This document shows, one piece after another, positions 28,712-36,559 of a DNA stretch of 64,000 nt. A program made the position numbers and the translations under genes. This DNA is from Sminthopsis crassicaudata (lineage: Eukaryota): positions 388,754,454 to 388,818,453 of the forward strand of contig NC_133619.1 of NCBI RefSeq assembly GCF_048593235.1, given 5' to 3'. The notes beneath the pieces are model-generated. The model had not been told where the DNA came from. It made no database searches and saw only the letters and a list, made by a program, of their open reading frames with translations. Position 1 is the stretch's first letter; each line of letters opens with the position of its first letter.

Positions 28712-29001
28712 TGTTGTGATATGGGAGACAACTGCCAGTGGCTTCTGGAGATCTAATTCAGACCTGTAGAATGAATCTTTTCATGTGAGAGGACGATGAT
28801 GATATAAGGAGACTGAGAGGTAATTGCATTGTCTGACCACTTTCCTCTTCCCTGTTGCCTCCAATTTACTTCATTCCCAATCCACAAGCAACACCTGTGC
28901 CAGCAAAGGCTGCTTTGCAACTCCTTCAGATGTCATGATCCACAGCTGTGGAGGCTCTCGGAGAATTGACTTGCCCCTTCACATAGGGATGGTCCTTAAC
29001 A
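28712..29001 (-). repeat. 3' LTR of mini-provirus (~290 bp)
   Basis: Minus strand TGTTAAGG...CACAACA termini; preceded by a PPT-like tract. Confidence 0.85.
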
Positions 29002-29196
29002 ATTCCCTATTTTTTTGTTTTATGAGTGTGATTATTTTTCCCCCACAGCATGCATTGACTGTTATCTAAATCCACATGCTAAGTTATCTGAGTCCACATG
29101 CTAGAGAGTGCAAATAGCAATATAACAAGTGTTGAAGTTTGTGAGATGTCATGGAGGCAAACTTTCAAACAGAGAAGAGGATATAGTCAGAACAGG

Positions 29197-29431
29197 CACT
29201 AGGGAACTAACAAGTCAGGGCATTATGTGAGTAGGTATAATAAAGGCTTTTAAGATTACATGTGGCTGTTATTGAGTGTGCTACCGGTTATTAAACTACT
29301 ATTCAAGAAATTGTGGCCAAAGAACTTTGAAGGCCTCAGAGCAGGTGAGCCGGGTAGAGTTGACACTGCAAAGGTCAGTGGTCAAGTTACTCTGTTGGGC
29401 CTAGGACAGACTGGTAATAGTTACTTCCAAG
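29197..29431 (+). repeat. Partial LTR (R/U5 region) related to LTR-A at 34854-35437
   Basis: Aligns by eye at roughly 85-90% to 35176-35424, including gtgagtaggtataataaaggcttttaagattaca; lacks the U3 start and the terminal attaca. Confidence 0.85.
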
Positions 29432-29588
29432 AAGGATGTGTTGGCCCATTTAATTACCCTGACTAAAAAGTCTTACTGGGTCTCTTCTCCCTTTCCTTCC
29501 CCACGGGTTACCAAAGGAACTCTCCTGGGAGGATCCTACTCATGAACAGCTCTCAAGTGCTGCTGCTTCTTTATTTCTTGTGTCCATA

Positions 29589-29860
29589 TGTTGTGATATT
29601 GGAGCCACCTGCGAGTTGCTGCTGGAGGTCTAACTCAGACCTGTAGAATGGATCTCTTCATAGGAGAAGATGATGATAATACAAGGAGACTGAGAGGCAG
29701 TTGCATTTTCTGACCTCTCTCCTCTTCCCTCTTGCCTCCAATTTATTTTATTCCCAATCCAACAAGCAACTCCTGCAGCAAAGGCTGCTTTGCAACTCCT
29801 TCAAGTGTTATGATTCACAGCTGTTTGACCTGCCCCTTCACTTAGGCATGGTCCTTAATA
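29589..29860 (-). repeat. 5' LTR of mini-provirus (~272 bp)
   Basis: Homologous to 28712-29001 with an internal ~16-bp deletion; terminal TG decayed to TA on the minus strand. Confidence 0.83.
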
Positions 29861-30436
29861 GAATTCTTCATATCATGATTCCTTTAATATAGTAACAATT
29901 CCATTACATTCATATAGTATGATTTATTAGCCATTTATAACTTGAACAGACTTTTTCCAGGGTTCTTTTCCTTATGAATTTTTTGGTATAAATGGTACTT
30001 GTTCCCTTAACTCCATTTTTATCTTTCTCAGAGTGATATATAGCAGTGATTTTCCTCAATAATAGATTTTAGCAGTAACATCTAGACATTTTTTATCTCT
30101 TTTTGCAATAATTGCAAATTCCTTTCCAAAATGTTTGGAACAATTCATAGCCCCACCAATAGTATCTAAGTTACCATCTTTCATAGTCTTTTCAATATTG
30201 ACTATATTTATCTTTTGTCATCTTTGTCGATTTGTTGAGTGTAAGGGGAAAACTCTGAATTTTCATCTTAGTGATTGGGATATATTTTTCATGTACTTTT
30301 TTAATAGTGTTCAAATTTTGGAATTTTTTTCATATTCCGAACACATATCTATTGGAGGGATGAACCTTGATATTTTTAATGCTAAATTCCAATATTATTG
30401 GTTAACAAACTTCTAATAGAATAAGGGAAGGTTTCT

Positions 30437-30738
30437 TGCTGGAACTCTATCTTCCCAGAAATCAGCAGGAGTCAGGATCACTAAATGTCTTTATTCTAGA
30501 TCTTTACCGTTGCCTCCAACGCCAGGTCATGAGTGCAAGTGAGCGTGAGTTTCACCACCCAAGTTTCTCTTACTCCTCCCACACAAGTCACTTCCCCCTC
30601 TTTGTCGCACCAATCAAGTCAGCACAGAACAGCTGGGGAGGGTCAACCTTCAAACAAGTTAATAGGGTACCGTCCAATTGGCAATTAGTCTCATGTGCTT
30701 CATTATCCAAGTGCATTGCTCAGTTCTAGCCCTTTACA
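30437..30738 (-). repeat. 3' LTR of ERV element B (302 bp)
   Basis: Minus strand TGTAAAGGG...GTTCCAGCA; AATAAA at 30490-30495; directly preceded by PPT aaaagaaagcaggaga (30739-30754). Confidence 0.92.
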
Positions 30739-30754
30739 TCTCCTGCTTTCTTTT
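30739..30754 (-). promoter_or_regulatory. Polypurine tract of element B
   Basis: AAAAGAAAGCAGGAGA abutting the LTR TG. Confidence 0.88.
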
Positions 30755-30903
30755 GTTTTAGACCACAGAAGGTTGTGCCATCCCTGACTTTTCAGGGAGA
30801 TGAGAACCCCAAAAAGGAGGTTATCACGCCCCCCCTGACTTCTCAGGAAGGGAGATGAAAAGCACCAAAGAGAAGTGGGGATTTGTTAGCGGGTTTCTGG
30901 ATT

Positions 30904-31250
30904 AAAGGGCCTTATTAGAGACAAGTATGCACAAACCCATCAACATGGGAGTTATTACACAAGCACATAGCAATAACGCAGAGGCTATTAGTGGTGACTC
31001 TCCCCACAGTCAGTGAAGACTCGATGTGGTGTAACAAACAGGAATTGTACATGCAAGTAGTGATATAACAAACAATATAAATCAACATGGTCTTGTAAGA
31101 GATTTCCAGAAGTCCTAGAAGGAGGGTATGTAAACACCAGACACACATACCCCTTCTTCAGCAACCAAGAGATAGTCCAAAACCAATCTATTGTCCATTG
31201 CTTCACTGTTAGGGAATCCAATGATCCCCACAAGTTTTTGAAGTCCCACA
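30904..31250 (-). pseudogene. env: env TM remnant of element B with immunosuppressive-domain-like motif
   Basis: Frame reads ...EAMDNRLVLDYLLVAEEGVC..., matching the ISD consensus (NRxxLDxLL..GGxC), followed by hydrophobic stretches with in-frame stops; no SU and no CX6CC seen. Confidence 0.7.
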
Positions 31251-31420
31251 TCAGTCTTTTTATATGTTAGGGAATCCAATGATCCCCACAAGGTTTTGAA
31301 GTCCAGCAACAATCTTATGATGCCTCAGAGAATCCAATGATTCCTGAGGATTTTCAAGTCCTACAATAGTCTTATGATGCCTCAGAGAATCCAATGATTC
31401 CTGAAGATTTTCAAGTCCAA
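31207..31420. repeat. Tandem repeat, ~57-58 bp x ~4, inside element B env region
   Basis: gaatccaatgat recurs at 31214, 31272, 31330 and 31387. Confidence 0.93.
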
Positions 31421-31621
31421 CAGTTTTTGATGTTCATGGGTCAAACGCCATAACTGCCAGGTTCTTTCAGTGGTGGGCACAGTCAGCAATGGAACCACCC
31501 GATGTTTCTTGGGTCTTCTCCTTCGTTTCAAGAGTCTGCTCTGTCTCTCTCCGATGGACAAGGCAAATACGGCTCGTTGGCACCCATCTGATTCCTTCTC
31601 CATCTGTAGAGATACAAGCAA
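31382..31621 (-). pseudogene. env signal-peptide (Rec/Rem-like) remnant of element B overlapping the IN C-terminus
   Basis: ORF ...LLKRRRRPKKHRVVPLLTVPTTERTWQLWRLTHEHQKLL; Arg-rich patch followed by TW-QL--LT, as in class II env leaders. Confidence 0.55.
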
Positions 31622-33100
31622 ACCCTTTCCCCCAAGCAGTTAACCTATCTGGTCCCTTCCATTCACCACTTTCTGGGTCTCTCCACATCACTTGGCGATT
31701 ATCTAAAGACAGTGGAGCTGCTCGCACTGGACACTGCCCTTCCGGTGGGTTATAAAACCTGGAGCCAGTGCATCTTTGTCAAAAATTAAAAAATTAATGG
31801 TATAGAGAACTAAATTTAGAAGTTCTCTAGGGTTACCCGTGGCTCCCCCTTTCTTTTGTTTTTGGAGGAGTGTCTTAATATCTCTGTTTCTTCTCTCTAC
31901 TATTGCCTGCCCTTGAGGATTAAAGGGTATGCCCGTGGTATGTAAAATCTTATACTGTGCACAAAAGTGTGTAAAATGTTTAGAAGTATATGCAGGTCCA
32001 TTGTCTGTTTTTATTGCTTGTGGCACACCCATAATTGCAAATGCTTGTATAAGGAATTCAGTTACCACTCGGGCTGTCTCTTTTGCTGCTGGCATTGCAA
32101 ATGTGAATCCCGAAAAGGTGTCTACCACGATATGGATAAAAGATAGACGACCAAAAGATTTATAATGGGTCACATCCATTTGCCAAATTTCATTAGGTCT
32201 CAAACCATGAGGGTTCTTCCCTGGAGGGAGTGTAGGAGCATGGAAAGGAAGGCAAGCCGTACAGGCTTTTACTATGCTCCTAGCTTCTTCTCTTGTTATT
32301 CCAAACTGCAAACATAAAGCTCGGGCAGCCTGATGATATTTAGAATGAGATTCTTATGCTTCTTGAAATAAAGGAGTACTGGCCAGCATGGTTAGAAGGC
32401 TATCTGCCTTTGAATTACCATCAAAAATAGGACCTGGAAGTCCACTATGGGAGTGGACATGCAAAATATAAATCTTGCCTGCATGCTTTCTCACTTGCTC
32501 TTGAAGCTCTTTAAAGAGCTGATATATATTGGAGGCTACAAATTTTATTTGGGCTATGGAAATTCTTTGTACCATACCTACTGAATAGGCCGAATCAGAT
32601 ATTATATTTATATCTCCCGGATAATAAGCAAGAGCTAGAATGATTGCATATAATTCATTCTGCTGAGTGGACTGAAAAGGAGTTCTGATTACTCTCTTTA
32701 TAGTTAAGCCACGAGAATACACAGTGCAAATATTATGTTTGGATGCATCTGTAAAGATAGTTGGTCCTTTAAGAGGAACTTTAGAAACCTTTTCTTCAAG
32801 AATCCATTGCCAATTGTCTGGTTATCTTTAATGGAGACCCGTGTGCAAAATTTGGAGCCATGGTTAATAAAATTTGCCACTCTGGGATGGTTTTGCAGCA
32901 CACATTAACTTGTGCATTAGTATAAAAGGTCTTGTCAGGTCTTATCCCAGATAATTGTACTGCTCATTTAATGGTCTTTAATAAAATTCTAGCCACAAGC
33001 ACTGGGCAAGGAATAAGGCTTTGTTCTGGTTGTGCTGGGAGGTTCACCCACTCTATCACACTGTCTCCTTGTTGAAGGACTGCTGTGGGTGCCTGCATGT
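31467..33100 (-). pseudogene. pol: Betaretrovirus-like pol remnant of element B (RT connection, RNase H, integrase); 5'-truncated at ~33100
   Basis: RNase H: IFTDAS..QQNELYAIILAL..NIISDSAY..HVHSHSGLPGPIFDGNSKAD. IN: H..H..C..C zinc finger, WQMDVTH, VDTFSG, KTDNGPAY, GIPFNPQGQAIVERRN, C-terminal VMWRDPESGEWKGPD..WGKGFAC. A few stops and frameshifts (stop near 32354, frameshift near 31750). Confidence 0.96.
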
Positions 33101-33930
33101 CCATTTTCAGAGTGGACCTTCAAATCATTTATAATCAGGCTGCTAGAATCTTATATTTGCAAATTGTAATAACTAAAGAGGAAGCTAGAGCATGGCAGAA
33201 GGCTACACAGCTTATCTTTCTTTCACTCTCCTATACTCCCTATAGCACAAAACCCTTATGGTTTGAAATTTAATGTTTTAAGACCAATGGACATTATGGC
33301 TTCATTCCAATCTGGAGAAGAAGCTAGACATGTGATCAACCATTTTTCCATTGTAGAAATTTCACATGCATTTAAGACAGTTATGGATTGGCTTACAAAT
33401 ATTTTGCCTTTCGGTGTTTTTGCATTGAATTTGACTTTGCCCATTCCATTGGCATTTCTTATAATCCTACTAGTAAAGTCATTACTGTACAGACTATATC
33501 CCCAAGATCTTCTCTTCTAAACAAGAGAAGGGAATTTTGGGATATGTACAAGATGTGGCAATACATATATGTGGTTGCTTGCAATTTTAAAATTTTGATT
33601 TTATATTTTTAAACACTTTTGATTTTACATCTTCAAAGTATTTTGATTTTACATTTTTAAATTATTTTGGTTTTACATTTTTAAATTCTTTGCCTTTTAC
33701 CTTAGCAATGCACTTTGGGCATACACAGAAAGTGAAGCTAAGTGACAGACTGACTAACTTTTGTCTGACTTTTTGTTAATCTTTTTGACAACAACTTTGT
33801 TTCCACTGTGATGTGGAAAGGCCTGGATGGCATTTGGAAAGGCCCAAGTTGGGCCCCGGGGACATTCCTTCCTAGGTGCAGATCCAGCAGCAGAGTTCAT
33901 CCCCACCAGAGACATTTGTAACCTGGGGAT
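33101..33930 (+). pseudogene. pol: Heavily decayed integrase of element A
   Basis: Across frameshifts: QAARILYLQIVITKEEARA (cf. B QAARALCLQFGITREEARS), NPYGLKFNVLRPMD (cf. NPHGLRPNEIWQMD), GEEARHVINH, AYKYF..FC..F..HSIGISYNP (cf. AYTSKHF..FC..YKILHTTGIPFNP), then VMWKGLDGIWKGP and FIPTRDI (cf. VMWRDPESGEWKGP, WVPTSRI). Confidence 0.8.
33585..33690. repeat. Degenerate AT-rich ~22-bp tandem repeat (ttttgattttacatttttaaa) inside element A IN
   Basis: ttttgatttta(c/t)at recurs about five times. Confidence 0.75.
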
Positions 33931-34292
33931 CCAAGAGAAGGACCAGACAACAGCCCAGAGGGACCAACTAGATGTCAGCAGCCCTCCAGACACTGATGAC
34001 AGCAATGTCCCTCCTGACCGTGACACCAGAGACAGCAGACACAGTTCCAGTGTTGCAGCTGAAATGGACTGTCTTGGGTGATATGCAATATAAAGACTGT
34101 GAATGGACAGTGGGCCTGCTTGCTTCTCCCGTGGCTATTTGCCGTATGGTGGCCTGGGAAGAGGCTTTGCCCTATGCTTTCTATTGAAGGACTATGCTTT
34201 TAAATTAGTGGGTGAAAAACAAACGCATCCACCTGCCATTGTTATTGAGACAATGTTACTGGACATGACTTTGCTTATGTGCACCTGTGAAT

Positions 34293-34535
34293 CTAGAATT
34301 GTTCTAGAATTGTGAAAAGTGCAATAGAGAATTGTGATAAACTAGAATTGCTCTAGGATTGTGAAAAGTGCAATTGAGAATTGTGATAAGCTAGAATTGT
34401 TCTAGGATTGTGAAAAGTGCAATTGAGAATTGTGATAAGCTAGAATTGCTCTAGAATTGTGAAAAGTGCAACCGAATTGTAAGAAACTAGAATTGGTCTA
34501 GGATTGTGATAAATGTAACTAGAATTGTGACAACC
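34293..34535. repeat. Tandem repeat, 49 bp x ~4.5, inside element A env region
   Basis: Unit ctagaattgttctaggattgtgaaaagtgcaattgagaattgtgataag starts at 34293, 34342, 34391 and 34440; built of (a)gaattgtga sub-units. Confidence 0.95.
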
Positions 34536-34639
34536 TTCCTCACTGATATTTAATTGTTAACTAGAATTGTGATGTTTTATCTTGTTGACTTCCCACCTCA
34601 GTGTTGACATCCTACCTCATTGGCATCCAACCTCTTTGG

Positions 34640-34853
34640 CTTATTATCTCGAGTATGACTTTGATGAATGGGTTGAACACTTGGGCCACTGTTGAGTCTG
34701 GTTCTTATTGTCATACTTCTGTTTACTGATCTGCTGCTTTGTACCTCCTTGGACATAACACTCTGTCATCTCATGGATCAAGTGAACTATAGCTGGTGCT
34801 AAAAGTTTAGCTTGGTGAGATGTGTGGTTCCTGCAAAACAAGAGAAAGGAAAT
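34640..34853 (+). pseudogene. env: env TM C-terminal remnant of element A (beta-type)
   Basis: LMNGLNTW..., then in a shifted frame LLSLVLIVILLFTDLLLC..., ending ...AKQEKGN across the PPT; this layout parallels the HERV-K TM end (GLANLNPVTW...LILILVCLFCLLLVC...KRKGGN). Confidence 0.55.
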
Positions 34854-35437
34854 TGTAAGAGCCCTTTAAATGGGCGCCACAGTGCATCGGGAGATTGAGT
34901 GGCCCGGAAGTAATTTCTGTGGATATTAGAACTGCCTTGTAGGTGGAATCCTGTCCATTTTGAGATAGCTTCATAATGGGTGACTCTCTCACTGATTGGC
35001 TGTGTGTGTGACCTCACAGGCCCTATGTAAGCCCACTGCAGGCAGCAGTCGCTACCCTAACCCTAAATGCGCGTTCTTCACCCTGGCTCCCTAGCCTGGG
35101 TGGCCAAGCCGAGATGGGTAGCCAAAAGAGGTAAGGATTTTGGTAGTGAACACGTGGGTCTTCTGACCAGGTGTTCACTCGGGAACCAACAAGTCAGGGC
35201 ATCAGTCAGGGCATTAGGTGAGTAGGTATAATAAAGGCTTTTAAGATTACACGTGGTTGTTCTTGAGTGCGCTACCGGTTATTAAGCTATAGATTCAAGA
35301 GATTGTGACCAGAGACCTTTGAAGGCCTCAGAGGAGGCGAGCTGGGTAGAGTTCACACTGCTAAGGACAGTGGTCAAAGGTACTCTGGTGGGTCTAGGAC
35401 AGACTAGTAATAGTAACTGCCAGGAGAGCACATTACA
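34854..35437 (+). repeat. 3' LTR of element A (584 bp), CpG-rich
   Basis: TGTAA...TTACA inverted termini, PPT immediately upstream, reverse CCAAT (attgg) near 34995, AATAAA at 35230-35235. Confidence 0.92.
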
Positions 35438-36559
35438 GTTTCCGATAATTCTTTCTACTTTTTCATAGTTTCATAAATTTAAATCTAGAAGGATACTCCT
35501 CTGCTATCATCATCCAGTTTGTTTTCTTAACGTACAGAGGATAAATTTGGATCTGGAGAGCTTGTAGGACTTGCTACAAGTCACAGAAAGTAAAGAATAG
35601 AGCTGGGATTTGAATGCAGCTCTTTTGAACCTATATTTGACATATTTTCCACTAAATTACAACACCATTCATCTACCTATCTTGTTTAGTCTAGCCTGAA
35701 CTAGAGGCAGGACATGTGATATGGGATAGACAAAATTGTTTATAGAAAGGTGATTGATAATATTACCAGCATAAAGAAGCTAAAAGAATTAGAGGTAAAA
35801 ATGGAATCTTTAGTAGAGGATCAACAATATATTATCAAAACAAAGTTTCAAAAGAGACCAGAAGCAAAGGGTCAGCCTATACCAAAACAGTTATTGACAA
35901 TGTAGCAAGTAAGAATTAGAAGATGGATGCAAAAGTAGAATCAGATACTACAGAAAATTTTAGCCAAATCTATAACAAGGCAAATCACAGATGAAGTCTG
36001 TGACATATATAAATAGCTTGTTGAAACTGATTGCAAGCTGTGGACTCCCTAAGGGTTCATTGCTATGATAAGTAATGGTTCTTACACTCTCATGAATGGG
36101 AAGTAGTCATTTTAGAACTGCTGATAACTAAGGCGCTATAATAATCAAGTTAGTCAGGGATGATAACACCTTTTTTAATCCCATAACTATTTAATATTTT
36201 AATGAAATATTTTTCTTTATTAATAATTTAAGACTCAGATTTCTTAGGCACTAAATGTTGGAAAAACAAATATAATTCCTTCTTCTAGATAAGAGAAATT
36301 TAGAAATTATGGAAGGAAGGAGCTTGAGAAGTTGTTTTCTTTCTTAATAATAAGTTTATATTTATATAGGAATTTTAAGATTTGTAAGGTATTTGAATAT
36401 ATTATCTCATTTGATCTTTACAGCAACACTGTGAAGTATGTTCTATTATGATTATATACAGGAAGTCTTTTTTCAAATTCAGCCTCATATAGTTACAAAC
36501 CCCCCAAAAAATATTTATTTACTTTTAAAAATTAACACAATATTGGGTATAACCATAAT

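Follow-up and report, generated by a model that had tools for sequence, protein, structure and literature searches.

In a 64,000-nucleotide stretch of the Sminthopsis crassicaudata genome (contig NC_133619.1, positions 388,754,454 to 388,818,453 of the forward strand; hereafter the window), positions 30431 to 35443 hold an insert composed of the inverted 3' parts of two endogenous long terminal repeat (LTR) elements, one of a helper-type family B and one of a non-autonomous family A, with a U5 end facing outward on either side. The insert is probably the product of one integration of a molecule with two U5 ends, built when two unfinished, co-packaged minus strands primed synthesis on each other. 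Such U5-U5 composites recur: the search proposed in an earlier note on this DNA (the original prediction) recovered 17 more from the same genome, and 17 of the resulting 18 have a target duplication of 5/6 or better.

On the left, the minus strand carries LTR-B (302 bp, 30437-30738; 94-97% to other young B LTRs) behind its polypurine tract (PPT; 30739-30759), a motif that precedes B 3' LTRs genome-wide. On the right, the plus strand carries the PPT of A (34835-34853) followed by LTR-A (584 bp, 34854-35437). These coordinates, and the absence of any alignment between the two LTRs, agree with the original prediction of two unrelated 3' LTRs on opposite strands, each with its own PPT; the canonical provirus layout, with two direct LTRs of the same family and one U3 and one U5 end, was not found here. 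The U5 terminus of B is base-exact, as the flanks of 18 of 19 other copies diverge there (the 19th copy is not informative), and other A copies stop at the same base as the U5 terminus of A. Adjoining these termini are gtttct (30431-30436) and gtttcc (35438-35443), the two copies of a 6-bp target duplication that match at 5 of 6 positions, as previously read; the right copy is identical in a second sample, X5. From the flank composition, a match of at least 5/6 has a chance of 0.8-0.9%, close to the roughly 1% first estimated, and it occurred in 15 of 684 cross-pairs. The earlier remark that the mismatched C sits in a CpG errs in direction: it is the copy retaining the C that has the CpG, and CpG decay therefore does not account for the difference. 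The single junction anticipated near 33100 was placed by parent-copy comparison at 33092-33094, where the inverted B and A parts share a 3-nt overlap (CCT) common to both parents. The read check proposed with it succeeded in part. Both outer junctions are present in X5 with 0 differences, but with just 25 and 27 element bases, which is below the 31-base bridging threshold of the read search, and the 33092 joint was not seen in reads swamped by other copies. The matches listed from the same swamped search included no insert-skipping joint. In another organism (organism B), the orthologous right flank continues, for 70 and 622 letters, into sequence that does not resemble LTR-A (letters not displayed), which suggests that the insert may be absent there; the contigs of a further organism (organism C) do not extend over this flank.

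Including the one in the window, 18 U5-U5 composites of 1.7-7.9 kb were identified, 16 of them A/B and two A/A (L157, L185). They were encountered at 8 of 38 informative other best matches to the B 3' end (L021, L071, L075, L079, L085, L089, L092, L095; the 39th other best match, L077, was left out), at 5 of the first 40 of 160 B-PPT matches (L121, L122, L139, L142, L154) and at 4 of 30 A-PPT sites (L157, L177, L179, L185), the last chosen by eye from the first 100 as having no listed primer-binding site (PBS) partner upstream. These locus samples are non-random, and 8/38 is a rough rate that applies to young B only. The TG...CA ends lie flush with the family-typical 6-bp duplication (5/6 in the window), which is perfect in 14 composites, matches at 5/6 in three and at 3/6 in one (L154). 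For 17 of 18 composites to reach at least 5/6 by chance has a probability of about 3e-34. Since the joint also differs in each of the 18, the U5-U5 composites are independent single insertions made by integrase, neither neighbouring insertions brought together by deletion nor copies of an amplifying chimera. The alternative named in the original prediction, two neighbouring insertions followed by a deletion, is thereby refuted for the class. An amplifying family was likewise rejected at the window, where no other match spans the 33092 joint (best 40 matches).

A plain B/B composite was not found among 78 B 3' loci, which could reflect loss of palindromes, their poor assembly, or a real bias. 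A/B pairs may outnumber same-family pairs because homologous rescue fails in mixed particles or because palindromic inserts are lost. Separately, in most copies 8 of 10 bases of the A U5 end, read inward, agree with the B U3 end (in the window at 30437, 34854 and 35437), and an A-U5/B-U5 pair may thus resemble a normal B pair to integrase, which could favour A/B composites. Several candidates were set aside: L068, whose full B is flanked by a 6/6 duplication of its own, with a 3/6 match between the outer flanks; L126, which is old and has an unclear far end; and L063, L073, L087 and L097, which show internal inversions and not two U5 ends. The latter four, with L129 and L176, are inversions inside single B or A copies, several of them starting from the PBS. 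Seven further loci (L061, L039, L110, L216, L219, L221, L224) are single insertions whose outer LTRs are one A and one B, with U3/U5 ends and 6/6 duplications.

Inserts with two U3 ends were present only in a short form, as two LTRs fused at the PBS, about 0.9 kb long and flanked by a duplication (L105, L109, L112, L114, L115, L232, L235). A pattern search found 79 head-to-head PBS-to-PBS joints genome-wide and 0 in the control. By hand count, the 50 of these joints that were listed comprised 44 A/B, 1 A/A, 0 B/B and 5 from a third LTR family; the accident is therefore not confined to A and B. Within the final 14 nt of the PBS, 12 positions are self-complementary, and the joints occur in both registers. 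One locus (G000:C2:151788026) is of mixed register, as would be expected if two heteroduplex mismatches had been fixed separately. A long U3-U3 composite was found neither in 30 B 5' ends, a sample from which known PBS-joint loci were excluded, nor by eye among the B and A PBS sites listed.

Ten loci combine a U5-U5 unit with a PBS joint and a copy of the far LTR (L074, L104, L106, L218, L220, L222, L223, L229, L230, L233), each inside one duplication, 6/6 in nine and 5/6 in one. The clearest of these three-LTR forms is L229, in which an inverted A 3' part and a B 3' part, joined as they are in the window, come after LTR-B and a PBS. Identity within the outer LTR pairs is 98.8-100%, on a par with canonical B pairs (mean 99.0%) and above the averages between elements, 96.7% in B and 93.8% in A. 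At L222, a deletion is common to the two outer LTRs, which are 99.5% identical; the middle LTR is at 95%. Under the standard scheme for reverse transcription, plus-strand strong-stop transfer within a molecule is what gives it a matched LTR pair. Matched outer LTRs together with a PBS joint therefore show that the inverted joint predates integration, and in these ten loci it is a product of reverse transcription. The simplest account of the plain U5-U5 form is that it represents the same intermediate without plus-strand transfer.

Based on these product types, we propose that (i) a B RNA and an A RNA would be packaged in one particle, as suggested by the A/B chimeras and by the identical 18-nt PBS of the two families; (ii) minus-strand synthesis would start on both RNAs, and a normal first jump, to which the intact 3' LTR and PPT on both sides point, would give each strand the order U5-R-U3-PPT; (iii) one strand would stall with no homologous template to rescue it and would continue on the minus-strand DNA of the other genome, switching through an overlap of 0-5 nt or a few added bases (the joint being seen and its maker presumed); (iv) copying to the far end would presumably yield double-stranded DNA with a U5 attachment (att) site at each end; and (v) integrase would insert this U5-U5 molecule with the 6-bp duplication that is observed. 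Displaced plus-strand strong-stop DNAs could then pair via their self-complementary PBS to give short U3-U3 two-LTR inserts or, alternatively, one such DNA could pair with the composite and thereby supply a third LTR. The genome contains both predicted by-products, the U3-U3 two-LTR inserts and the three-LTR forms. On balance, we incline to regard the process as an LTR-element counterpart of twin priming, in which helper and non-autonomous genomes are copied together and their nascent DNAs cross-prime, yielding a series of long U5-U5, short PBS-fused U3-U3 and three-LTR products; integrase would accept U5/U5 and U3/U3 pairs in the germ line, and such events would account for about one fifth of the sampled young helper 3' ends.

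Overlaps of 3-5 nt occur at 7 of 18 joints (the window joint is among these only with its best-matching references), compared with 5.8% expected per joint, and overlaps of 0-1 nt at others; inserts of 2-24 nt are present at 5 of 18 under both measures, one of them templated (L121). Joints of four measured three-LTR loci fall in the same overlap and insert range, and three joints of U5-U5 composites (L142, L157, L185) coincide with the 5' boundary of the A PPT. As a side observation, breaks recur at LTR-B ~145-163 (L063, L113/L221, L223, L224), possibly the start of R, where minus-strand strong-stop DNA ends. Host end-joining leaves comparable marks. In vitro, according to the available portions of one study (PMC3035444), 2-nt duplexes and added bases are enough for reverse transcriptase (RT) to start synthesis. 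As the two leave similar marks, the joints alone do not decide between them.

The original prediction had tentatively read the insert as a bimolecular concerted integration of two different cDNAs. What is retained from that model is a single integration with two U5 ends that come from different genomes, one helper-type (B) and one non-autonomous (A). In its surviving form, integrase would insert two separate DNAs by their U5 ends at one site, either complete ones or, with more plausibility, intermediates that had stalled in one particle, and host end-joining would link their inner ends, a course of events that we consider unlikely. It does account for one duplication with two U5 ends; the overlaps of 0-5 nt and the inserts, including the templated one at L121, look like end-joining; and the joints at the PPT edge could represent single-stranded tails trimmed to the duplex. 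Truncated intermediates inserted with flush duplications also exist, namely an A copy without a 5' LTR that stops at the PBS start (L163:261-3558; 6/6 duplication) and a 5'-truncated A copy with an apparent start at an internal TG (L162:6892-7738). Two-donor integration is known from in vitro work, which our literature search did not confirm. However, integration of complete cDNAs should also generate U3-U3 products similar in size and number to the U5-U5 composites, and the 30 B 5' ends and listed PBS sites described above yielded no long one. Moreover, no composite has two full-length partners with an intact U3-U3 joint, and the ten molecules with a matched LTR pair and a PBS joint place the same inverted joint before integration. 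The part of the prediction that invoked two complete cDNAs, resected later, is therefore not favoured.

Several points weigh against cross-priming of minus strands as the origin of the window insert. The argument for a joint that predates integration rests on the ten three-LTR loci and is extended to the plain U5-U5 form by parsimony; the two-LTR form of the window itself cannot reveal whether its joint predates plus-strand transfer. The A copy at L163 shows that unfinished intermediates can integrate, which favours the bimolecular model, and overlaps of 0-5 nt with short inserts are equally compatible with host end-joining. The overlap in the window is 3 nt with the best-matching references and becomes a 2-nt insert by the median method. 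Its duplication is 5/6 and not 6/6, and that of L154 is just 3/6. In addition, the loci were sampled non-randomly, with known PBS-joint loci excluded from the 5' sample, an empty allele was not seen, and the flank comparison with organism B was made without the letters displayed.

The remaining explanations fare worse than the bimolecular model. If one cDNA end had attacked the other cDNA within the particle, integrase would have made the joint and left two U5 ends; autointegration indeed gives inversion products in LTR-retrotransposon particles, as far as the accessible part of that study goes (PMC7197481), and a few joints are near an LTR start (L079, L122). Such joints should sit exactly at the U3 terminus, however, which is the case for 0 of 18: some of those observed are internal, some fall inside an LTR, and others are at the far border of a PPT that has been retained. 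This contradicts an integrase-made joint unless every joint was trimmed later, and we consider it very improbable. Little credence can be given to two independent neighbouring insertions with a later deletion and a chance match of the flanks. The 5/6 match in the window would arise by chance in about 0.9% of cases, and an older LTR-A-like piece 1 kb upstream indicates that the region collects such elements; however, the 17 of 18 duplications discussed above argue against this, as do the breaks of A and B, which are at non-homologous positions. The A break corresponds in homologous terms to a B position near 32460, about 630 bp from the B break, and homologous inverted recombination between A and B was therefore rejected as well. 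Finally, an assembly artefact fusing two repeat copies is scarcely credible: although both families are high-copy and the 33092 joint was not seen in the reads of another sample, where other copies swamped the search, matching flanks, seen in 17 of 18 cases, are not what a misjoin of two loci would produce, and X5 has both outer junctions, with the flanks in one window.

The event type, aberrant strand transfer, is known, and it is the product with two U5 ends of two families, together with matching U3-U3 and three-LTR forms, that appears to be new. In the available parts of three reports (PMC9278108, PMC12657518, PMC13427564), plus-strand transfer between molecules is described for HIV-1 and HTLV-1, as are deletions at the PPT and R landmarks; inversions affect about 1-2% of proviruses. 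The likeness lies in switches at landmarks of reverse transcription and in strong-stop DNA moving to a co-packaged genome; in contrast, those proviruses keep the 5' and 3' LTR of one virus, whereas the composites described here have two U5 ends from two families and are fixed in the germ line. The clamp activity of RT, as presented in the accessible sections of PMC3035444, resembles our joints in its 2-nt priming and non-templated additions (compare the 0-5 nt overlaps and short inserts), but it is an in vitro activity that requires an adjacent annealed segment, and its extension to the RT of these elements or to switches from minus strand to minus strand would be an assumption. L1 twin priming likewise produces an inverted, truncated insert within one target duplication; it is target-primed and uses one RNA with a poly(A) end, whereas the present composites involve two RNAs, end in LTR att sites and carry a 6-bp duplication of the integrase type. 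Inversion circles formed by autointegration in plant particles also contain inverted segments made within the particle, but, in the portion of the study available, these are circular dead ends joined at LTR termini (PMC7197481), and the composites here are integrated and joined internally. In the accessible text of a review (PMC12789967), the sole mention of 'U5-U5' concerns RNA structure. A literature search of titles and abstracts returned no description of integrated U5-U5 composites; older subscription literature was outside its reach, and an earlier report is therefore possible.

These loci record in vivo which genomes share a particle and that both are reverse transcribed simultaneously. 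They also show that integrase does not require one U3 and one U5 end. Because such composites escape LTR-pair finders and primers directed at 5' and 3' LTRs, the class may be under-counted elsewhere, and any genome that has a helper/non-autonomous pair lends itself to such a count. With an LTR facing outward on either side, each insert could hypothetically affect transcription in both flanks.

Complete-length B copies measure ~6.6-6.8 kb, with ~300-bp LTRs and gag, pro-like and pol frames; they contain no long frame after pol. The copy in the window retains, all on the minus strand, 57-58 bp tandem repeats of the 3' untranslated region (31207-31422; the copy number differs among B copies), an integrase in two frames with Zn, core and C-terminal domains (31467-32353; Pfam PF02022, PF00665 and PF00552; best PDB E 4e-59) and an RNase H (32354-32821; Pfam PF00075) separated from it by a stop. 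Translation shows a broken remnant of the end of RT at 32822-33094, presumably its connection region, where B is cut at internal position ~3625 of 6052. On the plus strand, the A 3' part (33092-34853) holds decayed RNase H and integrase pieces and 24-bp and 49-bp tandem repeats, and the predicted loss of upstream parts is thus borne out for both partners. The RNase H and three-domain integrase of B place it among class II (beta-like) endogenous retroviruses by Pfam and PDB searches. The search output names no virus for the top PDB chains (5cz2, 3jca, 7usf), which we take to be the integrase of MMTV. Judged by eye, ~700 bp of B RNase H/integrase DNA is close to the MEBrv 3 record in the supplement of PMC11334065, as far as that source was accessible. 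MEBrv 3, an env-less betaretrovirus-like element of dasyurids, is, in the accessible parts of that work, like B in its RNase H/integrase, in a series of gag, pro-like and pol frames with nothing long behind them, and in its high copy number; its representative, however, is 7.3 kb long with a 469-nt LTR. A degraded env remnant (ISD) after pol is a further mark of MEBrv 3; at that place B was seen to lack any long frame. By this visual comparison, B is assigned to the MEBrv 3 pol clade as a different subfamily with shorter LTRs. In the main text and supplement of PMC11334065, to the extent available, 'inverted' is absent, 'non-autonomous' has 0 occurrences and no such partner is named.

Copies of A are ~3.2-4.3 kb long and contain RNase H/integrase only as 74-75% remnants, and A would therefore be non-autonomous. 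The 18-nt PBS of both families presumably corresponds to tRNA-Lys1,2. Exact-motif matches, which are lower bounds, number at least 160 B PPT, 471 B PBS, 801 A PPT and 569 A PBS sites genome-wide. Duplications of 6 bp also flank canonical B and A copies and are mostly 6/6. In organisms B and C, B-like internal sequence is abundant, with little LTR-B or family A at 85%; from these comparisons, the A/B pair seems lineage-restricted. Five A copies (L024, L027, L028, L038, L040) have an upstream LTR with its own PPT before it, and three A PPT sites lie 3.2 kb apart at G000:C1:12873885-12880349; both observations read as tandem A arrays with common LTRs. At L034:4097-4480, a 7-nt U3-end piece follows the PBS and is itself followed by a 6/6 duplication; this fits the proposed scheme, as one more brief switch by which an att site would have been restored. 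Upstream of the insert, the window contains an older LTR-like element (28712-29858) with two 82% repeats of ~290 bp (28712-28999 and 29589-29858), between which sits an 88% LTR-A fragment (29213-29432). This fragment was rejected as the missing 5' LTR of A, as it belongs to the older element and is separated from the insert by unique DNA.

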